Positions 2,876 through 62,347 of a stretch of DNA of 64,000 bases are shown piece after piece. The stretch comes from Desulfuromonas sp. SDB (lineage in GTDB: Bacteria; SDB-A), in the NCBI GenBank assembly GCA_001412365.1, contig LKUE01000319.1, positions 2,264 through 66,263 of the forward strand, read 5' to 3'. Each line of letters begins with the position of its first letter. Positions within the stretch are counted from its first letter, which is position 1. The notes under the pieces were generated by a model. That model was not told the DNA's origin and ran no database searches. It worked only from the letters and a program-made list of their open reading frames with translations. The position numbers were made by a program, and so were the translations under genes.

Positions 2876-2924
2876 TTTAAAGAAAAATTTACTTGGAAAC
2901 GGGCAGAAGGGATGTGAAATCCGG

Positions 2925-2953
2925 TTGACAAAATAGTTTAGAATTTGTAGAAT
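2925..2953 (+). promoter_or_regulatory. sigma-70-like promoter upstream of rplM: TTGACA, 17 nt, TAGAAT
   Basis: ttgaca at 2925-2930, 17-nt spacer, tagaat at 2948-2953, about 50 nt upstream of the rplM ATG. Confidence 0.45.
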
Positions 2954-3001
2954 TGCCAGTTCCAATTGATTTCAATTTAAATATGAAATTAGGAGATAAT
3001 T

Positions 3002-3430
3002 ATGAAAACATACGTGCCTAAGAAAGATGAGATAGAACAGAAGTGGTATCTTGTAGATGCTGAAGGACTTCCTTTAGGAAGACTGTCATCCAAGATTGCT
3101 ACTTTGTTAAGAGGGAAACATAAACCATATTACACCCCCTTTATGGATACTGGTGATTATGTAATATGTATCAATGCTGAAAAAGTTAAACTGACTGGAG
3201 TTAAGTGGGATACCAAGATCTATTGGAGACACTCAGGATATATGGGCGGGATTAAAACTAGAACTGCCCGGGAGATAAAAGAAAAGTATCCCCAGAGAAT
3301 TGTCGAACATGCAGTCAAAGGAATGTTGCCTAAGGGACCGTTAGGCAGAAAGATGTTTAAAAAGCTAAAAGTTTATGCCGGTCCCCATCATAATCATAAG
3401 TCACAAAAACCTGAAGTGATTAAAATTTAG
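3002..3430 (+). CDS. rplM: 50S ribosomal protein L13
   Basis: [28 protein letters not shown] is a typical L13 N-terminus; 142 aa. Confidence 0.95.
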
Positions 3431-3441
3431 GGAGGATTTAA

Positions 3442-3849
3442 TTGGAGAAAAAAGAGTCTGTAAATACAATTTTCATGGGAACTGGCCGTAGAAAAGAATC
3501 AGTAGCCAGGGTGAGATTAGTTCCAGGAGATGGTCATCGAATGATCAATGGAAAAAAATTCTCAGACTATTTCAACCGAAAAAGTTTTTTGATATTAATG
3601 GAATCTCCACTTAACGTAATGGGCTTATCCGGGAAATTTAATGTGCTGGTAAATGCTAATGGAGGAGGTAAATCCGGACAGGCAGGAGCAGTTAAGCTGG
3701 GAATTGCCAGGGCATTGATCAAAGCATTCCCCGACCGTAAAGGTGAATTGAAAAAGCTGGGATTCCTGACCAGGGATGCAAGGGTGGTTGAACGTAAAAA
3801 ATACGGAAGACCCAAAGCCCGTAAGAGATTCCAGTTTTCAAAACGTTAA
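3442..3849 (+). CDS. rpsI: 30S ribosomal protein S9
   Basis: [14 protein letters not shown] and the C-terminal RKRFQFSKR are S9 signatures. Confidence 0.95.
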
Positions 3850-3951
3850 TAATTTTCAATTTATAAAATCATCACATAACTGGAGCTGGATTGGGTCCCT
3901 TCGGGGTTGTCCGGTGCGGAAGGTTATGGTTGACTAACCCAAGGAGGACAA

Positions 3952-18701: not shown

Positions 18702-18723
18702 TTTTAACTGATCCTTTTACCAA

Positions 18724-18757
18724 AAAGCCACCAGTTTAAGGTGGCTTTTTTTTTTGA
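18724..18757 (+). terminator. Rho-independent terminator after the vWA lipoprotein gene
   Basis: aaagccacc agtttaa ggtggcttt perfect stem followed by a run of 10 T. Confidence 0.85.
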
Positions 18758-23479: not shown

Positions 23480-23562
23480 TTGGTTAAGTTAATAGTATTT
23501 ATGATTAATATTCAACAAAAAATACCATAGTGGAAAATTCATCTCTATGATATAAATTTTCT

Positions 23563-24213
23563 ATGTCGATTTTTAAAGCAGAACAAGTTTCGGTAAACCT
23601 CGATCCCAAATTTTCCGTACTGGATTTAAATTTAACTGTTGAAGAAAAGGAAAAAATATTGTTGTTCGGTAAATCCGGTTCGGGTAAAACTACAATTTTA
23701 AAAATGTTTTTAGGATTTGTGATCCCCTCCCAGGGAAAGCTGTTCTTCCGGGATGAGGAGATAAACTGCCGCAACATCTGGGATCTCCGTTCCCAGGTCT
23801 CCTATGTAAGTCAGAATAACAATATCGGGGATATCCCAGTAAAAGAGGTAATAGATAGAATCATGTCATTTAAAGTTAACCGGAACATTCAGTATAAACA
23901 TAAATTAAATCAATACCTGGATTTATTTGAAAAACCCCTAGAAATCCTGGACAAGGAATTCAGTGACTTGTCGGGAGGAGAACAGCAGATAATCAATATC
24001 ATCATCAGTCTGCTTCTGGAAAGAAAAATATTTTTACTGGATGAAATAACTTCATCCCTGGATGTTGAATTGAAAAACAAAGTTCAGCGGTACTTCATTC
24101 AACAGGAGCAATGCACTGAAATTATTGTATCCCACGATCAGAGCTGGATGGAATTTAATAATATTAAAACCATAACCGTGGACAGTATATGGGCGCAAAA
24201 GATATATCACTGA
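23563..24213 (+). CDS. ABC transporter ATP-binding protein, FetA/YbbL-like
   Basis: Walker A GKSGSGKTT, signature LSGGEQQ, Walker B LLDEITSSLD; 216 aa and similar to the E. coli FetA layout. Confidence 0.6.
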   Translation: MSIFKAEQVSVNLDPKFSVLDLNLTVEEKEKILLFGKSGSGKTTILKMFLGFVIPSQGKLFFRDEEINCRNIWDLRSQVSYVSQNNNIGDIPVKEVIDRIMSFKVNRNIQYKHKLNQYLDLFEKPLEILDKEFSDLSGGEQQIINIIISLLLERKIFLLDEITSSLDVELKNKVQRYFIQQEQCTEIIVSHDQSWMEFNNIKTITVDSIWAQKIYH

Positions 24214-24980
24214 TATCAGTATTTCTATGTTTCTTACTGCTGATTGTACCTGTCGCTATATTTCTGCGGTTTAAAGTACAATTAATAAAATCGCTGCTAA
24301 GCTCAGTAGCCAGGATGACTTTACAATTGTTCTTAGCGGGAGTGTATCTGCAGTTCATTTTCCGGTGGAACAATGTTTTTATCAATATATTGTGGCTGAT
24401 GATCATGGTCACTGCGGCTACCATAACTGTATTGAGATCAACTAATTTAAACATCCGAAAATTATTCCTCTCCATTTTCTGCTCTTTTCTGATTACAGTG
24501 ATAGCGGTACTGGTTTATTTCAACTGGGTGGTGATAGGATTGGAAGTGATCTTCGATTCCCGTTATGTAATTGTGATCGGAGGGATGCTTTTGGGAAATT
24601 CACTCCGGGGGAGTATTGTAGGGCTGAATTCAATTTACCAGCAGTTGAAAAAATCAGAATCCTGCTATCTTTACTGCCTGGCGGGAGGAGCAACTAAATT
24701 TGAAGCATTGATGCCTTATCTTCAGGACAGCTTAAAATTTGCACTGATGCCCACCATCGCCTCCATGGCTACTATCGGACTGGTTCATCTTCCCGGAATG
24801 ATGACTGGTCAAATCCTGGGGGGATCAAATCCCATGGTGGCAGTTAAATATCAGATTACCATCATGATCGCCATCTTTACCGTGACCAGTTTAAATGTGG
24901 TGCTGACTTTTCTGTTTTCCATCTACGCCAGTTTCAACCGGTATGGGGTGATCAAGAAGGGTATCTGGAAAAATCATTGA
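24189..24980 (+). CDS. ABC transporter permease, FetB/YbbM (UPF0014)-like
   Basis: 263-aa polytopic membrane protein overlapping the ATPase gene; size and pairing fit the FetAB iron exporter family. Confidence 0.5.
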   Translation: MGAKDISLISVFLCFLLLIVPVAIFLRFKVQLIKSLLSSVARMTLQLFLAGVYLQFIFRWNNVFINILWLMIMVTAATITVLRSTNLNIRKLFLSIFCSFLITVIAVLVYFNWVVIGLEVIFDSRYVIVIGGMLLGNSLRGSIVGLNSIYQQLKKSESCYLYCLAGGATKFEALMPYLQDSLKFALMPTIASMATIGLVHLPGMMTGQILGGSNPMVAVKYQITIMIAIFTVTSLNVVLTFLFSIYASFNRYGVIKKGIWKNH

Positions 24981-25007
24981 CTTCGTAGTACCCCCCCCCA
25001 GTTAAGT

Positions 25008-25140
25008 AACCACAGAAGACACGGTTCCCCCCTCCCCACCATTAATGAACACAAAGCACCCCTCATCCCCGCCTATTAGAATAAACCACAGAGGACACGG
25101 TTCCCCCCTCCCCACCATTAATGAACACAAAGCCCCCCTC
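25008..25140. repeat. Two copies of a 57-nt C-rich direct repeat separated by 19 nt, preceded by a 9-C homopolymer (24991-24999)
   Basis: aaccacaga[a/g]gacacggttcccccctccccaccattaatgaacacaaagc[a/c]cccctc at 25008-25064 and 25084-25140; a hairpin acctgcc-ttagt-ggcaggt at 25166-25184. Confidence 0.8.
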
Positions 25141-25288
25141 CACTCCGGATAAGAGGATAGGATTAACCTGCCTTAGTGGCAGGTAAACCGGATAGAAAAA
25201 GAGTACAATAATCAGGTGTAAAAATCATAAGTCTGTTTTATAATCTTTGTTTTTAAGATAATTTAAATAAATAAAAAAATAATAAGAT

Positions 25289-26818
25289 ATGTTAGCCTGG
25301 CAGGATTATATTGTTCTAGCCGGTTATGCCGCAGTAATTGTTACCATTGGCATTATCACCGGCAGAAAAGAAAAAAATATAACCGACTACTTCCTGGGGG
25401 GCAGGTCGATGCCCTGGTGGTCGGTAATGATTTCTATTTATGCTACTGCCTTATCTGCGCTTACTTTCATTGGAGTTCCGGGAGCAGCATTTAAGGGAGA
25501 TTTTCATTATCTCCAACTGGGATTCGGGGATTTAGTGGGTCGGATCCTGATTTCATTTATCCTGTTGAAACCATATTATAAACATCAAGTTACCACCGTA
25601 TATGAACTGCTGGATAAGAGATTTGGTAAATTTTCCCGGGGCTCTGGAACACTGTTCTTTCTGGTAACCAGACTTTTAGCCAGTGGAGTAAGACTGGCTG
25701 GTTGTGCTATCGCCCTTTCAGTGATATTTAGTATTCCCATGAATCTAGCCATAGTGATCATCGGACTGGTTGCCCTGGCTTATACATCGGTGGGAGGAAT
25801 AAAGGCGGTTATCTGGACGGATACCTTGCAGTTTTTATTATTTATTGCCGCTGCCACTGTGGTTATCTGGTTGTCGGTAAATTCTCTGCCCGGAGGTTTT
25901 TCTGAATTTATTCAAGTGGGACAGCAATTTTCCAAATTTAAGATTTTTCATATATCCTTTAATCCGGCTAGCCAGGATTTCTGGCTTAATTTATCCAATC
26001 CCCAGTCCTTTATTGCCGGATTTTTATTTGGCGCATTTACCACCTTTGCCGCATTGGGTACAGATCAGGATTTGGTGCAGAGAATGCTGACCTGTAAAAA
26101 GGTAACCCAGAGTCAAATTGCCCTGATTTTTTCAGGATTGTTGAATTTCCCGGTAACTCTTCTGTTTTTATCAGTGGGAGCAGGTTTATTTGTGTTTTTT
26201 AAAATCAATCCTGATCCGGTAGTTACTGATTTTGTAGCCCAGGGAAAAACAGATTACATCTTCCCCTATTTTATAAAGACCTTTCTCTCTCCGGGAATCA
26301 AAGGTCTGCTAATTGCCGGATTGCTGGCGGCAGCAATGTCATCACTGGATTCTGCAATTAATGCCCTGGCTTCCACTGCCTATGTGGACATTTACACTGC
26401 TTTTATGAATAAAAAAGCGGATCCCGCTAAAGCGGTGAGGGTTTCCAGAATTCTGGTAGCAGGTTTTTCAGTCATTCTCATCGGAATTGCAGTGATGTTC
26501 AGCAATACCGAATCAATTTTATGGCTGGGTTTTAAAATTGTAGGCTATACTTACGGGGCAATGCTGGGGATATTTTTACTGGCAGTGCTGACCAGAACCA
26601 GGGGAAATGACTGGGTAAATGCGGCAATTATGGTCAGCAGTGTGCTGGTGGTGTTGTTTTTCACTTCAGAATCAGCAGGAATTTTGACCGGGGTGAGGAG
26701 AGTAATGCTAACTCCTCTGGGCATTGATAAAATTGCCTGGCCCTGGGCAATTATAATGGGTACGGGATGGACTTTTGGATGGGGATTGTTGTTTAAAACC
26801 GGTAAAAATTTCAATTGA
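25289..26818 (+). CDS. sodium:solute symporter (SSS) family transporter
   Basis: 13-TM profile and the N-terminal SSS signature region (GGRSMPWWSV...); 509 aa. Confidence 0.7.
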   Translation: MLAWQDYIVLAGYAAVIVTIGIITGRKEKNITDYFLGGRSMPWWSVMISIYATALSALTFIGVPGAAFKGDFHYLQLGFGDLVGRILISFILLKPYYKHQVTTVYELLDKRFGKFSRGSGTLFFLVTRLLASGVRLAGCAIALSVIFSIPMNLAIVIIGLVALAYTSVGGIKAVIWTDTLQFLLFIAAATVVIWLSVNSLPGGFSEFIQVGQQFSKFKIFHISFNPASQDFWLNLSNPQSFIAGFLFGAFTTFAALGTDQDLVQRMLTCKKVTQSQIALIFSGLLNFPVTLLFLSVGAGLFVFFKINPDPVVTDFVAQGKTDYIFPYFIKTFLSPGIKGLLIAGLLAAAMSSLDSAINALASTAYVDIYTAFMNKKADPAKAVRVSRILVAGFSVILIGIAVMFSNTESILWLGFKIVGYTYGAMLGIFLLAVLTRTRGNDWVNAAIMVSSVLVVLFFTSESAGILTGVRRVMLTPLGIDKIAWPWAIIMGTGWTFGWGLLFKTGKNFN

Positions 26819-35767: not shown

Positions 35768-36022
35768 ATGACTGGTAATGTAAATTCAGCCGCTGATTCA
35801 AAGCCTAAATGGTATTATTCCAGATGGGGAGTGCTGTTGCTGTTGTTTTTAATTGCAGGTCCCCTGGGCTTGCCCTTTTTATTTAAAAGTGAACAATTTA
35901 GCAAATTTTGGAAAATTGTTATTACTTTTATCACCGCAGTTTACTTTGTAACAATAATTATTCTGTTGATAAGTTTGGAGTTGTGGTTTGTGCATCGGAT
36001 TGTCTGTCTGCAATACTCCTAA
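35768..36022 (+). CDS. small two-TM membrane protein, hypothetical
   Basis: 84 aa with two clear hydrophobic helices; follows cobB by 8 nt. Confidence 0.4.
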   Translation: MTGNVNSAADSKPKWYYSRWGVLLLLFLIAGPLGLPFLFKSEQFSKFWKIVITFITAVYFVTIIILLISLELWFVHRIVCLQYS

Positions 36023-47337: not shown

Positions 47338-48723
47338 TCATTTCTGTTTAAACTGTTGATCTAAATTAACCACTGCTTGAGCGATGATGTTGGTTAATTT
47401 GATTAAATTTTCAATTTTAATGAATTCATTTTTTTGATGAGCTAGCTTGGGCTGTCCGGGAAAGGATGAACCAAAAGCCACCGTGTTTTTAAATGCCCTG
47501 GCATAAGTTCCTCCTCCAATTGCTAAAGGAGGAGAATGGTCACCGGTTATTTCCCGGTAAGTGTTCAATAAACTTTTAACTAAAACTGAATCCCGGTCAA
47601 CATGCAGTCCGGGCACTCCTCTTTGAATTGTTGCGTTGAAACCGGAAGGAAGGCGGGAATTAATTTCAGATAAAATAATAGAGGGATCAATCCCCACCGG
47701 AGAACGAATATCCAGTTCAATTTGATAATGGGGGGGGGTGAATTTCAGTATGCCGGGGTTAATAGTTAATTTGCCTGAGAAATTTTCATGAGCTATATTG
47801 AGTTTCTTTCCCCCAGGGTCATTGGCTAGAAAATTTTGGTAAAATTCTATAATCTGATATCCGGGATCCTGGTGATCAATTAAATTAATAAGAATTTCAT
47901 TCAGTTTAGTAATGGCATTCACCCCTTCTTCAGGAGTACTGCCGTGGGCAGATTTTCCTCTTGTTGATATTTTAATTTCATTTTTGTCCAGGCAAATATC
48001 AACTTCATTTTTTTGAAGGGCTTTAATATTATTTATCTTTTCCACCAGGGATGATTGTTTTACTAAAGCTGCTTGAGCCTGATCAGGGACCATATTAACT
48101 GCAGCTCCTCCCTGCATGCTGAGTAACAAAGAGGAATCAGTTTCACTTTGAATAAGGATTCGGATAATTTCTTTTTCTGCATAAATTAAAGGGAATTGAG
48201 CATCAGGAGTTATTCCATAGTCCGGTAATTGATCATGTTCACGGTAATAGTCAACTCCTCCCCAACCTAATTCTTCATTGGTACCGAATATTATCCTCAG
48301 CCTGCCGTTAACCTTGATAGAAGAGTGCTTGATTGCAGCTAAAGCATGTATGGAGGCAATGGCAGGACCTTTGTCATCTTCGGTTCCTCTTCCATATATT
48401 TTGTCCCCTACCAGCTTGCCCTCAAAGGGAGGATAGTCCCAGTTTTCACCGGCAGGAACCACATCAAGATGAACTAAAATTACTCCTAAAGGTTTTCCCT
48501 GGCCAATTTCCGCCCATCCGTAATAGCCCTTATTAATAAAAGTATTTAATCCCAGCTGTTTGGAAATCTGAATAGCCAGTTGTAAACAGCGCTGAATATC
48601 TTTCCCAAAGGGGGCTTCCTCACTGGATTCTCCATTGACGCTGGGAACTTTAATTATATCAACTAAATGATTTACAATTTGCTGCTGATTACGGTTAATA
48701 TAATCATTTATCTCATTGTTCAT
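47338..48723 (-). CDS. M20-family dipeptidase (PepV/Sapep-like)
   Basis: RGTEDDKGPAIASIHAL and HLDVVPAG metal-binding motifs; ~460 aa. Confidence 0.75.
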   Translation of the reverse strand: MNNEINDYINRNQQQIVNHLVDIIKVPSVNGESSEEAPFGKDIQRCLQLAIQISKQLGLNTFINKGYYGWAEIGQGKPLGVILVHLDVVPAGENWDYPPFEGKLVGDKIYGRGTEDDKGPAIASIHALAAIKHSSIKVNGRLRIIFGTNEELGWGGVDYYREHDQLPDYGITPDAQFPLIYAEKEIIRILIQSETDSSLLLSMQGGAAVNMVPDQAQAALVKQSSLVEKINNIKALQKNEVDICLDKNEIKISTRGKSAHGSTPEEGVNAITKLNEILINLIDHQDPGYQIIEFYQNFLANDPGGKKLNIAHENFSGKLTINPGILKFTPPHYQIELDIRSPVGIDPSIILSEINSRLPSGFNATIQRGVPGLHVDRDSVLVKSLLNTYREITGDHSPPLAIGGGTYARAFKNTVAFGSSFPGQPKLAHQKNEFIKIENLIKLTNIIAQAVVNLDQQFKQK

Positions 48724-50279: not shown

Positions 50280-52565
50280 TTACTCCATGATAATTTTCAA
50301 ACGTTCAATCTTTGAAGCGGGATCAAGAGCAAATATCTCCTCGACTTCGGATATTCGCAAAGACCCGCTAGAGGTGAACTTAATGTTTATTATAAAACTA
50401 TTTTGTTTGTTTTCTGCATTGATTATAAATTTTCGTGCATTAATAGTTTTAATTTTATTCTTTGTTTTTCGATTAATTAATATTATCTGCTGATTTAATA
50501 TTTTATCAATAATTTTAGATTTTACATCCACAAAATTATACACCAAACCAGTTACCCGGGAAGTAATTGGTTTAGATCCTTGAGTTCCCCGTTCACAGGA
50601 TACCACCTCTAATCCTGGTGGCAACTGCGGGGATATTCTCTGTTCAATTTGTTCAACTGGATATTGATTTGATCTGAATTCCATTATTTCACAGCGGGAA
50701 ATCACCTTAAATGGAAGGGGAGGGCTGAAATTTACTTTAGGCCGGGGTCTTTTTCCCTTGGTCATTTCCAGGGGCAAGCGAGCTCTCCGGAATGCTCTCA
50801 GCAACGCTCTTATTGTATCTAGATGGGAAAGATAGATAAGCTGTTCGGTTTTGGAATAATTGAGGAGGTAAGTGTGGCCAGTATTGATTTCAGGAGGGGA
50901 GGTAAATATATTGGTTGAAGTAGAAGTTGAAGGATCAACCGCAGGTGAACAACCACTGTTAGAAAAAATTATTTCAGTCCACGGTTGATGGTTTTGTCGG
51001 TTTTTAAGCTGTTTGTCTATATCTATATCCTGTTTTTGCATAGCCTGCTTCCACCGGGGGTAGTCAAAATATTCATCCCACTGGTCAAACCTTGAACCTT
51101 GCTTGAAAACTTCAACCGCTGCTTTGGACATGCGCTCATCTCCCCGGGCTAAAATACCTTCAACAATGGCTAAGTGTGGATTCCGGGCGCTGATGGCAAC
51201 AGGTTCCGGAGCCAGTAATTTTTTTACCTGATGATATTTAGTCATTATCTCAGAGTAGGTGGCTTGAGGTTGATGCTGAAAAGGGGTGTAGGGGCGGGGG
51301 ACGAAAGGGGATAGGGAAACTTTCACCCGGGTAGATCCGAGGTGAGGTTTTAATTTTTTTATCAAACCGGGTATTGCTTTTATATCTTCCTCAGTCTCCT
51401 GGGGTAATCCCAGCATAAAGTAAAATTTTATCCGATTGAAGTTATGTTTGACCGCCAATTTCACTGAGTTAATAATCTGTTGATCGGTTATGGGTTTTCC
51501 AATAATTTTTCTCAACCCTTCAGTCCCTGCTTCCGGAGCCAGGGTAAGAGTTCGATGACCGAACCTTCCGGCAATAGCCAGAGTGGTCTCTGATATCTGA
51601 TCTACTCTCAATGAAGGCAGAGAGAGATTTACTTGTTCCGCTTTTAAAACCGGTTCTAAATCAATTAAAATTTCTTCAAGTTGGGGATGGTCACATACAG
51701 ATAAACTTAACAAAGAGACTTCTTCCCATCCAGTTTGGCAAAGTCCCTGATTAATTATTTCAATTATTTGCTGTTTGCTGCGGTAACGCACATTTCTGGT
51801 AATTGATCCGGATTGACAGAATTTACAGTTCCGGAAACATCCCCGGGAAATCTCCACCGCTAAACGATCCTGGGTAATCTGGATAAAAGGAAGGATTGGA
51901 GGTAGGGGATAATCTGAATACTTTAATTTTTCAGCATATTGATAGGAAAGGGGTAAACCTGATCTACCCCGGACATATATCCCCTCTATCTTACTCAACT
52001 GCTCAATAGCTTGATCGCGGTTAATTTGTTTTAGATGATAATTTCTTACTATTTTAGCCAGGGGAAGTAAAACAGGTTCAGCTTCTCCAATTACCAGTGC
52101 ATCAAAAAACAAATTCCACAGATTGAAATTTAAAGCAGAGGCGCCTCCTCCTATAACCAGTGGATCATGGCTATTTCGCTGTTGGGAATACAGGGGGATG
52201 TCGGATAGGGAAAGGATGTTTAAAACATTGGTAATATTTAACTCACATTCCAATGAAATTCCCAACATGGCGAAGGCATTTACGGGGTATTTTGACTCCA
52301 GAGAAAACAGGCGCATCTTTTTGCGGATCAGTAATTTTTCCAAATCAGAGCAAGGAGCGTACACCCTGTCTACATTATAACCATGGGTAATTAATATGTG
52401 ACGGATTATATGCAGTCCTAAATTGGACATCCCATTTTCGTAAAGGTCTGGATAGCATAGTACTATTTCCGGACACTGAGGAGGATGGCTATGCAATTCA
52501 TGATTGGTGTATCTGGAAGGATTCTGTACCTGATCAAGGATTGATTTCAAATCATCCATTACCAC
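50280..52565 (-). CDS. B12-binding-domain radical SAM protein fused to a DUF2344 (TIGR03960 + TIGR03936-like) module
   Basis: CFRNCKFCQSG radical-SAM CxxxCxxC; N-terminal cobalamin-binding-like domain; C-terminal HLDTIRALLRAFRRARLPL DUF2344 motif; 761 aa. Confidence 0.65.
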   Translation of the reverse strand: MVMDDLKSILDQVQNPSRYTNHELHSHPPQCPEIVLCYPDLYENGMSNLGLHIIRHILITHGYNVDRVYAPCSDLEKLLIRKKMRLFSLESKYPVNAFAMLGISLECELNITNVLNILSLSDIPLYSQQRNSHDPLVIGGGASALNFNLWNLFFDALVIGEAEPVLLPLAKIVRNYHLKQINRDQAIEQLSKIEGIYVRGRSGLPLSYQYAEKLKYSDYPLPPILPFIQITQDRLAVEISRGCFRNCKFCQSGSITRNVRYRSKQQIIEIINQGLCQTGWEEVSLLSLSVCDHPQLEEILIDLEPVLKAEQVNLSLPSLRVDQISETTLAIAGRFGHRTLTLAPEAGTEGLRKIIGKPITDQQIINSVKLAVKHNFNRIKFYFMLGLPQETEEDIKAIPGLIKKLKPHLGSTRVKVSLSPFVPRPYTPFQHQPQATYSEIMTKYHQVKKLLAPEPVAISARNPHLAIVEGILARGDERMSKAAVEVFKQGSRFDQWDEYFDYPRWKQAMQKQDIDIDKQLKNRQNHQPWTEIIFSNSGCSPAVDPSTSTSTNIFTSPPEINTGHTYLLNYSKTEQLIYLSHLDTIRALLRAFRRARLPLEMTKGKRPRPKVNFSPPLPFKVISRCEIMEFRSNQYPVEQIEQRISPQLPPGLEVVSCERGTQGSKPITSRVTGLVYNFVDVKSKIIDKILNQQIILINRKTKNKIKTINARKFIINAENKQNSFIINIKFTSSGSLRISEVEEIFALDPASKIERLKIIME

Positions 52566-58414: not shown

Positions 58415-59376
58415 ATTACTCCTGCTCTCATCATATCATGCAGATGAATTATGCCGATGGGTTTGCTTTGGGTATTGATTACAATTAGTGCAGTTATTCC
58501 GTTGTCTTCCATTTTCTTAACTGCATTTATGGCTAATTCATCAGGATAGGTTACCTTGGGATGAGGGGACATGATATCTTCAGGATTTAATTGAAATATG
58601 TTGCCTTTGCCGTATATAGCCCGTCTTAAGTCGCCGTCGGTGATTACTCCAATTATGTCTCCCTGCTCATTGACCACCGAAGTAATACCCCGTTTGGTGG
58701 TCATTTCCATAATGACCTGTTTCATATCCGCACCAGTTTTGACAATAGGGACATTTTCAGATTTTACCAACATATGGTCCATCACCCGGTCTAAAATTCG
58801 CCTTCCAATTGCCCCCCCCGGATGACGGAGGGCGAAATCTTCAATTTTAAAATTTTTAACTGTGGATAAGGTTATGGCCAGAGCATCCCCGATGGCTAAA
58901 GTGGAGATGGAACTGGCAGTGGGAGCTAAATCCAATGGACAGGCTTCTCTTTCTACGCTTACATCCAAAACATAATCGGCATGCTCAGCTAGTTGAGACT
59001 GGGTGGCTCCGGTTATTAAAATAATCTTTACTCCTATTTGTTCAAATACAGGAACTAATTGCAGCAGGGCGTCGGTATTTCCACTTTTGGAAATTAACAA
59101 GGCGATGTCCCGGGGTTGTACAGAACCAACGTCTCCGTGCAGTCCTTCTGCGGCATGAAGGAAAAAAGAAGGAGTTCCGGTGGAAGATAAAGTTGCTGCA
59201 ATTTTCCGACCGATTAAACCTGATTTTCCAATGCCGGTAACTACGATTTTGCCGGGGCAGTTAAGTATTTCCTCTACTACCTGGACAAAAGTTTCATTTA
59301 TCTTATTCAGGCAGTTCTGGACACTTTCCGCTTCAAGGGATATTACCTTTTTTGCTATATTTAAAATATCTAACAT
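58411..59376 (-). CDS. kdsD: arabinose-5-phosphate isomerase (SIS + tandem CBS)
   Basis: SIS motif VVTGIGKSGLIGRKIAATLSSTG and two C-terminal CBS domains. Confidence 0.88.
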   Translation of the reverse strand: MLDILNIAKKVISLEAESVQNCLNKINETFVQVVEEILNCPGKIVVTGIGKSGLIGRKIAATLSSTGTPSFFLHAAEGLHGDVGSVQPRDIALLISKSGNTDALLQLVPVFEQIGVKIILITGATQSQLAEHADYVLDVSVEREACPLDLAPTASSISTLAIGDALAITLSTVKNFKIEDFALRHPGGAIGRRILDRVMDHMLVKSENVPIVKTGADMKQVIMEMTTKRGITSVVNEQGDIIGVITDGDLRRAIYGKGNIFQLNPEDIMSPHPKVTYPDELAINAVKKMEDNGITALIVINTQSKPIGIIHLHDMMRAGVI

Positions 59377-61614: not shown

Positions 61615-62347
61615 AATTTTCCCTCTTTTTGAAAATGCTTTTTGCTTTATCATAATCCTGCTGAGTGTCTATGCCCCAGGAATCATTTGAGGTTTCCCTG
61701 ACTGCAATTATCCCTCCCATCTCCAGGATTCTTAATTGTTCCAATTGCTCTGTCTTTTCTAATTCAGTTTGAGGTTGCTGATTAAATCTTATTAAAAATT
61801 CTCGGCGATATGCATAAATTCCGCAATGTTTTTTTATTACCGGTGAAGTTTGATTTAAACAACAGGGTATGGGAGATCGGGAAAAATATAGTGCATGATT
61901 GTAGTGGTCTGCGACCAGTTTAACCTTTGATGGATCTTGATAATCCGTCGGCTCAGCGGACCGATTGTACAAAGTAGCTACATCTGCTTGGATATCTTCC
62001 TGCAGGGCAGTGACAACCAAGTCAATATCCCCTGCCTTGATTAAGGGTTCATCTCCCTGTATGTTTACCACTATCTGATAACCGGGAAATTTTCGGGATG
62101 TCCAACCAACTCGATCTGATCCTGTGTTCATGGGGGGGGTGAGTAAACAGGGGATATTCAACTGCTCCGCCTTTTCCTGAATAGATGCAGATTCAGTGGC
62201 TACAATCAGCTTGTCCAGTTTTGCTGCTTTAGTACCTGCTTGATAAACCCAGGCAAAAAGGGGCAGATTGCCAAGAACCAGCAAAGGTTTTCCTGGCAAT
62301 CTAGTAGAAGCCATTCTTAAAGGAATTACTCCCAGTACACCATTCAA
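61607..62347 (-). CDS. kdsB: 3-deoxy-manno-octulosonate cytidylyltransferase (CMP-Kdo synthetase)
   Basis: IPLRMASTRLPGKPL and NIQGDEPLI motifs; aligns to E. coli KdsB. Confidence 0.88.
   Translation of the reverse strand: MNGVLGVIPLRMASTRLPGKPLLVLGNLPLFAWVYQAGTKAAKLDKLIVATESASIQEKAEQLNIPCLLTPPMNTGSDRVGWTSRKFPGYQIVVNIQGDEPLIKAGDIDLVVTALQEDIQADVATLYNRSAEPTDYQDPSKVKLVADHYNHALYFSRSPIPCCLNQTSPVIKKHCGIYAYRREFLIRFNQQPQTELEKTEQLEQLRILEMGGIIAVRETSNDSWGIDTQQDYDKAKSIFKKRENYG

Follow-up and report, generated by a model that had tools for sequence, protein, structure and literature searches.

A C-rich trailer with a tandem repeat downstream of a fetB-like gene of Desulfuromonas sp. SDB: a possible Rho-dependent terminator

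The 64,000 nucleotides of contig LKUE01000319.1 analysed here (positions 2,264 to 66,263, Desulfuromonas sp. SDB, assembly GCA_001412365.1; hereafter the window) carry a C-rich element in the spacer (24981-25288) between a fetB-like permease gene and a sodium:solute symporter gene. Judged by comparison with related sequences, this element is a C-rich 3' trailer of the fetB-like gene that is specific to the lineage, conserved in part of its sequence and variable in repeat number from strain to strain. As to function, we tentatively propose that it is a Rho-dependent terminator, that is, a Rho utilization (rut) site, of the fetAB-like operon, which would insulate the promoter of the symporter gene. 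The proposal is based upon the excess of C over G, the lack of structure, the untranslated position, the spacing of the C residues, a hairpin without a U tract, the absence of an intrinsic terminator and a similar bias towards C in the relatives.

We infer transcription across the region, binding by Rho, and termination at this site. Ribosomes would leave the message at the fetB stop codon, Rho would load on the 80-160 nt of naked C-rich RNA which follows, and RNA polymerase would be caught around the hairpin at 25166-25184. Transcription would thus end before running into the symporter promoter at approximately 25200-25250.

If this is true, the element would be a clear Rho-type terminator of an unusually extreme kind, from an anaerobic lineage that has barely been sampled and that lives in methanogenic, hydrocarbon-degrading cultures, with a partial conservation of sequence that is unusual for a rut site. 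It would change nothing fundamental, and would offer a small test case for whether rut sites can be sequence-specific and whether C-rich 3' trailers double as regulatory RNAs.

Composition and anatomy of the element

The initial annotation described a run of nine C residues, two 57-nt direct repeats and a hairpin with a 7-bp stem, all of which were recovered in place. The "strongly AT-rich" background against which it set them proved to be only moderately so, with 39.3% G+C in the window. Unless stated otherwise, features are given on the + strand. The C9 homopolymer (24991-24999) starts 11 nt past the fetB stop, is part of an ancestrally C-rich stretch, and is tied with G9 at 47730-47738 as the longest C/G homopolymer of the window. 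This G9 tract, as well as C8 at 58812-58819 and G8 at 62132-62139, lies inside predicted minus-strand open reading frames (ORFs); these three tracts may be sites prone to slippage or sequencing errors.

The succession of a rut site and a pause site is the anatomy searched for by RhoTermPredict (PMC6407284), and it is also described in PMC13613805. We looked for at least 70-80 nt in which C exceeds G, with spaced C or pyrimidine-C (YC) residues, little structure, freedom from ribosomes and a hairpin no more than 150 nt downstream. Every one of these was found: C exceeds G, the C and YC residues are spaced, there is little structure, the position is beyond the stop codon, and a hairpin follows within 150 nt. 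The candidate rut site is a first 78-nt "bubble" at 24991-25068 with 36 C, 8 G and 26 YC dimers. Its C-minus-G value of +28 is the largest of the whole 64 kb (mean -2, standard deviation 7), and a C/G ratio of at least 4.5 is reached by only 0.35% of 78-nt windows on either strand. It contains a chain of six C residues spaced 11-13 nt, which is nearly automatic at such a high C content. A second 78-nt window, at 25067-25144, has 34 C and 9 G. On the + strand no intrinsic terminator was found after fetB; textbook intrinsic terminators occur elsewhere in the same genome, at 18722-18750 and 35855-35873. None of the annotated ORFs of the window is a rho gene, which is uninformative either way as the window is approximately 2% of a genome. 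A terminator-like site on the minus strand (25109-25090) was rejected: its stem is weak and rich in G-T pairs, and there is no minus-strand gene to terminate.

Elsewhere in the window a skew of comparable size is found at 51239-51316 (35 G and 7 C on the + strand), so that the sense strand of the minus-strand gene 50280-52565 is just as rich in C there. The only dense cluster of canonical G-quadruplex (G4) motifs in the window is at 51283-51331.

Direct repeat 1 (25008-25064) and direct repeat 2 (25084-25140) are each 57 nt long and contain an identical core of 39 nt, at 25019-25057 and 25095-25133, respectively. They are distinguished by two positions (25017 A vs 25093 G, and 25058 A vs 25134 C). 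Repeat detection extends the pair to two tandem units of 76 nt (25008-25083 and 25084-25159) of 87% identity, the first 57 nt being 96% alike. The 19-nt "spacer" (25065-25083) matches the sequence which follows repeat 2 (25141-25159) at 11 of 19 positions, and is therefore the diverged tail of the first unit. The 39-nt core occurs exactly twice in the window, as against 0.00 occurrences expected from 100 shuffles. That the region is not an array of clustered regularly interspaced short palindromic repeats (CRISPR), as the initial annotation had held, was confirmed. Such an array would have at least three repeats of 23-47 nt and unique spacers of similar length, whereas here there are two repeats of 57 nt and the single spacer is itself a diverged repeat tail.

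The hairpin ACCTGCC-TTAGT-GGCAGGT (25166-25184) has a stem of 7 bp, five of them G-C, a 5-nt loop and no U tract. It folds much better than shuffled sequences (z = -3.0 on the + strand and -4.1 on the - strand) and is a candidate for an RNA polymerase pause or a protective 3'-end stem-loop. TTAA-containing motifs are present at both ends of the element (25002-25005 and 25164-25167).

The suggestion that the region might specify a structured RNA found no support. The two units fold with -0.9 and -7.5 kcal/mol, worse than shuffles (z = +1.4), and the 220-nt region folds no better than shuffles (z = -0.4 on the + strand and 0.0 on the - strand; -0.3 for the one-copy allele). Neither the window nor seven related loci matched any Rfam 15 family at the gathering threshold, and around the element nothing was found at E ≤ 10; the best sub-threshold match, to wcaG (17.5 bits against a threshold of 42 bits), is noise. 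Pairing of the element with the coding end of fetB, by way of a purine-rich motif and a U/C-rich codon stretch, was predicted in the window and in the related loci L015 and L010; with z values of +1.3, -1.4 and -0.5, respectively, it is not significant.

Nor does any ORF account for the region, in agreement with the initial annotation, since the small ORFs present are not coding-like. Those of 35, 21 and 42 amino acids were rejected because the period of 76 nt is not a multiple of three, and five of the five substitutions inside the ORF in strain L012 are nonsynonymous. Read-through of the fetB stop codon was likewise rejected: the frame is broken by length changes of 1 and 4 nt in strains L014 and L008 and is shifted in L010. 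Past the stop the fetB frame does remain open, over 32 codons in the window and over 29 in L015, with N-H-x-x-H-x-x-x-L-P-T in common. The conserved codons are identical at all three positions while the variable ones change the amino acid, and hence the conservation is at the level of nucleotides and not of protein.

Conservation downstream of fetB and variation between strains

In relatives of the window a core of the form TTAAnTAACCACRGARRRCACRG, followed by a C-rich stretch ending in CTCCCCACC, is found directly after fetB. These relatives (L numbers denote fetched loci) include L010 and L011, the flanks of which are 85-87% identical to the window in DNA, L013 (76%), and L015, with 63% identity in FetB and 66% in fetB DNA. 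In the window the first copy of the conserved core, AGTTAAGTAACCACAGAAGACACGGTTCCCCCCTCCCCACCA (25000-25041), is homologous to the post-fetB sequence of L013, L010 and L015, and a second copy at 25076-25117 was recognized with the core profile. Out of 1000 shuffles none exceeded the local alignment score of L015 or of L013, and seven exceeded that of L010; the alignments of L005 and of the 56%-identical L017 were not significant. From CCAC to CTCCCCACC the distance is 22 nt both in the window and in L015. A second and weaker CCACRGA motif lies at +51 nt in L015 and +42 nt in L010, which suggests that two copies may be the old state and that those of the window may have been homogenised recently.

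The gene downstream of the trailer in L015 is convergent and unrelated, which argues that the element belongs to the 3' end of fetB and not to the symporter. The proposal of a 3' untranslated region (UTR) was accordingly supported, for the core follows the fetB stop in the relatives whatever gene lies downstream. Throughout the 151 kb made up by the window and the fetched loci, the core profile matches only at this position and on this strand. A stretch in which C exceeds G is kept here in all relatives, with a maximum C-minus-G of 18-29 per 78 nt. The element is nevertheless too diverged for blastn in relatives whose flanks are 85-87% identical.

L013 lacks the hairpin at 25166-25184 and has another one further upstream, the apex of which is GCTTCGC. 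Hairpins with this apex occur downstream of the core at L013:84-98, L015:3403-3417 and L010:2785-2797, and are absent from the strain of the window. Their lower stems differ and yet are complementary (ATCT/AGAT in L013 and TTTT/AAAA in L015), the one in L010 being weak. In L013 a 12-bp inverted repeat at 11-22 and 126-137 (ACCCGGTTAATT / GATTAACCGGGT) encloses the whole trailer (fold z = -3.5). Without the enclosed 105 nt, L013 would be left with the palindrome CCCGGTTAACCGGG.

Possible dispersal of the repeat unit in many copies, raised in the initial annotation, was not seen: it is confined to a single locus in the window and in the 151 kb. No match to the element was obtained in species-representative genomes, JGI metagenomes, viral contigs, plasmids or phages; the exact-pattern scans of public collections gave only chance matches or nothing and would miss diverged copies.

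Among close strains the trailer is variable. The window, L001 and L009, three assemblies of the same strain, have a C9 tract; L014 has C8 and L008 CCACCCCC, both being near-identical strains (99%), and the counterpart of the tract in the relative L013 is CCTCCACCC. This variation indicates an unstable run within an ancestrally C-rich stretch rather than a switch placed there. Over 7.5 kb the Logan contig L001, from SRR2187629, agrees with the window, except that exactly one 76-nt period is missing. This indel is the only structural difference between the two, the other mismatches being the variant bases of the repeat itself. In the single unit of L001 the head is that of copy 1 and the tail that of copy 2, as a recombination deletion across the identical core would leave it. 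From this arrangement it appears that recombination between the identical 39-nt stretches can remove one copy. Gene conversion has probably kept the copies alike. In SRR29904085 the Logan contigs break off and resume precisely at the variant bases on either side of the 39-nt core. Read as an assembly pattern, this is the de Bruijn signature of a two-copy allele or of a mixture, and it lends independent support to the presence of two copies. The tandem repeat of the trailer thus differs in copy number among genomes that are otherwise identical, and it interrupts metagenome assemblies.

In a strain of 98.5% identity there are 7 substitutions per 102 nt in the element as compared to 70 per 4530 nt in the coding flanks, a density four to five times higher. 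The C runs are interrupted in this strain, and the three substitutions in the C-rich part (C>A, A>T and C>T) introduce no G. The hairpin at 25166-25184 has one mismatch in strain L012. In two other samples, the metagenome-assembled genome (MAG) GCA_049975185.1 and SRR6664622, unrelated sequence (GTAGAGTAGGAGCAGGAAGT...) follows AACCA within the core (AACCA^CAGA), at approximately 25013 of the window (L008:3321-3396, L014:2767-2790 and L012:1-50). On the other side of the insertion ...CTTCATGGCACT precedes CCAGAGGACACGG, and contigs of 52 kb and 125 kb both end at the insertion point inside the core. The inserted sequence, which may be an insertion element or a strain-variable cassette, has no match in the window, the loci or the viral contigs.

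Weighing the explanations

The element resembles known Rho-dependent terminators in being approximately 80 nt or more of C-rich, G-poor and unstructured RNA with spaced C and YC residues, placed just past a stop codon, with a GC-rich hairpin, lacking a U tract, no more than 150 nt downstream. It differs from them in its C/G ratio of 4.5, far above that of typical rut sites (a ratio of at least 3 was attained by only 37 of 4494 validated E. coli predictions; PMC6407284), and in that half of its core is purine-rich and conserved in sequence, which is unexpected for a rut site. Several further observations weigh against termination by Rho. A high C/G ratio and YC spacing are predictors of low specificity (PMC13613805). 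None of the 11 other intergenic regions longer than 60 nt in the window is C-rich, and C-rich trailers of the Rho type are therefore not a visible habit of this genome. The hairpin at 25166-25184 is not conserved across the relatives. Rut sites are normally conserved in composition and not in sequence. The purine-rich half of the core (CCACRGARRRCACRG) is not YC-rich and is conserved at 63% FetB identity, which points to sequence-specific recognition by something besides Rho, or instead of it. Among well-known cases, E. coli trp t' is a Rho-dependent terminator, and in another, lambda tR1, rutA and rutB flank a hairpin. L013 and L010 have C-rich stretches on both sides of a small hairpin, presumably an arrangement like rutA-boxB-rutB. 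On balance we retain the Rho-dependent terminator as the most plausible, though by no means assured, assignment.

Recognition of sequence would be accommodated by a regulatory RNA or sponge derived from the 3' UTR, although we consider this rather unlikely. The single-stranded core, CCACRGARRRCACRG together with CUCCCCACC, which contains an anti-Shine-Dalgarno-like CCUCC, would be its seed and would pair with G-rich sites such as the ribosome-binding sites of other mRNAs, or bind an RNA-binding protein, while the hairpin would protect the 3' end. Known small RNAs with C-rich seeds include RsaE/RoxS and FsrA, and CpxQ and DapZ are derived from 3' UTRs. The element is like these in having unstructured C-rich motifs, CCUCC among them, that could pair with Shine-Dalgarno regions, and in its position at the 3' end of an mRNA with conservation above that of the surrounding spacer; unlike these, it has neither an Rfam match nor a U-tailed terminator and its C-rich motifs are not in hairpin loops. 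In favor of such an RNA are the 40-nt unstructured core, conserved in sequence directly after fetB across the deep divergence of L013, L010 and L015, and the conserved codons, which are identical even at wobble positions and so argue that selection acts on nucleotides. The hairpins of L013 and L015, with their common apex and covarying lower stems, point the same way, and the many genes with strong AGGAGG ribosome-binding sites would provide a CCUCC seed with targets. However, the hairpins lack a U tract, unlike the real intrinsic terminators of this genome, no internal promoter or processing site is known, and targets resembling GGTGGGGAG are not enriched in the 64 kb, or approximately 2% of a genome (16 matches with at most one mismatch vs 10.6 expected); two of these 16 are the element's own copies on the - strand. 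Judging from its sequence, the core with CTCCCCACC exactly 22 nt after CCAC would also suit an undescribed sequence-specific RNA element, conserved singly or in duplicate past the fetB stop of an uncultured anaerobic lineage, which we think unlikely. It might serve as a C-rich seed or protein-binding site in the 3' UTR that links the expression of a metal/oxidative-stress exporter to other genes, and the C-rich, Rho-like composition could then be secondary. Alternatively, the spacer may be functionless and hypervariable, its C runs and tandem repeats arising and decaying by replication slippage and unequal recombination, with G-quadruplex or i-motif formation perhaps adding instability. The 76-nt indel in L001, the C9, C8 and CCACCCCC variants of near-identical strains, the four- to fivefold denser substitutions in the 98.5%-identical strain, the foreign sequence interrupting the core in two other samples and the clustering of contig ends at the locus are all what one might expect of such a spacer, and the most extreme 100-nt G4Hunter value of the window (-1.22, standard deviation 0.21) is found here. 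Neutral DNA, however, should be unrecognisable at 63% FetB and 66% fetB DNA identity, where the core and its 22-nt spacing persist; the C-richness is kept in a genome of 39% G+C whose other spacers contain 8-22% C; and a search for a canonical short-loop G4 motif found none at the element. Absence of function is, in our opinion, rather improbable.

The remaining explanations would place the function in the DNA. An array of binding sites, in which a transcription factor or nucleoid protein recognizes tandem CACRG-N4-5-CACRG and TTAACC-like motifs and so regulates a neighbouring promoter, is very unlikely. Short direct half-sites do recur at a period of 9-10 bp, the window, L010 and L015 each have the core twice, either end of the region bears TTAACC-like motifs, and the palindrome GGTTAATTAACC occurs in L013. 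But the element keeps its place behind fetB when a convergent gene follows, leaving no promoter to regulate, it is 130-240 nt upstream of the -10 box of the symporter, the spacing of the copies varies (42, 51 and 76 nt), and the motif is found nowhere else in 151 kb. Resemblances noticed by eye to a DnaA box (TTAACCACA vs TTATCCACA), to a parS half-site (CACGGGAAACA in L015) and, on the minus strand, to FtsK-orienting polar sequences (GGGGAGGG) were partial and inconsistent across the relatives, and were rejected. The remnant of a mobile element or a hotspot of insertion, of the type of a miniature inverted-repeat transposable element (MITE) or an attachment site, could be seen in the 12-bp inverted repeat which encloses the region in L013, the empty site of which would be the palindrome CCCGGTTAACCGGG, and in the unrelated sequence of GCA_049975185.1 and SRR6664622, which splits the core at AACCA^CAGA and is flanked on either side by a contig break. 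The element also shares with MITEs, with repetitive extragenic palindromic sequences and their mosaics (REP/BIME) and with enterobacterial repetitive intergenic consensus (ERIC) sequences a short repeated unit, an intergenic position at the end of an operon and, in one relative, some inverted-repeat character. It differs from all of these in being restricted to a single locus, with head-to-tail, non-palindromic copies that are vertically conserved at the 3' end of one gene. Neither the window nor any of the fetched loci has the element at more than one place, the public collections scanned gave no matches to it, and its presence at the same locus at only 63% FetB identity points to vertical inheritance; a mobile origin is thus very improbable. 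Finally, slipped-strand phase variation through C9, switching the symporter or fetB, is the least supported of the explanations and highly improbable. A homopolymer of 9 nt is long enough to slip and its length differs between close strains (C9 vs C8), as in the poly-C and poly-G contingency loci of Neisseria, Haemophilus and Campylobacter. In contrast to those loci it lies neither in a reading frame nor in a promoter spacer, and it has not been kept as a homopolymer in relatives, where it is interrupted (CCACCCCC) or absent. Three independent assemblies of the strain represented by the window all have C9. An effect on the promoter of the symporter, one of the candidates in the initial annotation, was not borne out, as the tract is outside any ORF or promoter spacer, approximately 240 nt upstream of the conserved TATAAT at 25239-25244. 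The idea of phase variation can be dropped.

Genes around the spacer and the source lineage

The fetB-like permease gene (24189-24980, + strand, TGA stop at 24978-24980) belongs to UPF0014 (Pfam PF03649, E = 2e-67). It is the last member of a two-gene ATP-binding cassette (ABC) exporter operon that starts with a fetA-like gene (23563-24213). Since its product scores 108 bits against the 410-bit cut-off of NCBIfam TIGR00245 we refer to it only as FetB-like. The sodium:solute symporter gene (25289-26818, + strand) matches Pfam PF00474 and, with 240 bits, exceeds the 184-bit cut-off of TIGR00813.

Alignments of relatives revealed a probable promoter for the symporter gene at 25201-25250 on the + strand, with TACAAT (25204-25209) and TATAAT (25239-25244) motifs. 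This is the best-conserved intergenic block in the relatives (GAGTAyAATAATCAGGTGTAAAAA..GTCTGTyTTATAATC); it is downstream of the C-rich element and not part of it. It is present in every relative examined from the ~90% protein cluster of the symporter, all of which have the same gene neighbourhood as far as their loci extend. A generic sigma-70 scan made no promoter call at 25201-25250, and a scan of JGI metagenomes with the conserved promoter pattern yielded no orthologous loci. The leaders of the fetA-like gene (23541-23562) and the symporter gene (25267-25288) are A/T-rich and have no Shine-Dalgarno sequence. Strong AAGGAGG sites are present at many neighbouring genes, for example rpsB and tsf, and a Shine-Dalgarno-like motif precedes 23 of 55 genes.

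The symporter protein is identical to KQC12809.1, which is labelled "Desulfuromonas sp. SDB." The SDB genomes derive from a methanogenic paraffin-degrading culture (PMC5780852). The MAG GCA_049975185.1, which is 98-99% identical to the window, is labelled only "bacterium." Sampling of the lineage is thin: the next FetB homologue is 63% identical, and outside the small ~90% cluster the symporter homologues are 74% and then approximately 65% identical and come from very different phyla. Beyond this cluster the nearest homologues of FetB and the symporter are from Auribacterota, Scalindua and "Deltaproteobacteria." With its nearest homologues 63-74% identical and scattered over several phyla, the genus label "Desulfuromonas" is doubtful and, to go by these protein comparisons, looks wrong. 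The syntenic relative L015 encodes a protein with a weak match to Por_Secre_tail, of the type IX secretion system.

In the remainder of the window an apparent gap of 1 kb at 2876-3951 is occupied by rplM and rpsI. Several neighbouring ORFs on the same strand overlap when listed with their longest starts (40697-41773/41670-42431 by 104 nt, 56973-57869/57782-58414 by 88 nt, and 59866-61653/61607-62347 by 47 nt), and these pairs probably reflect over-extended start calls.

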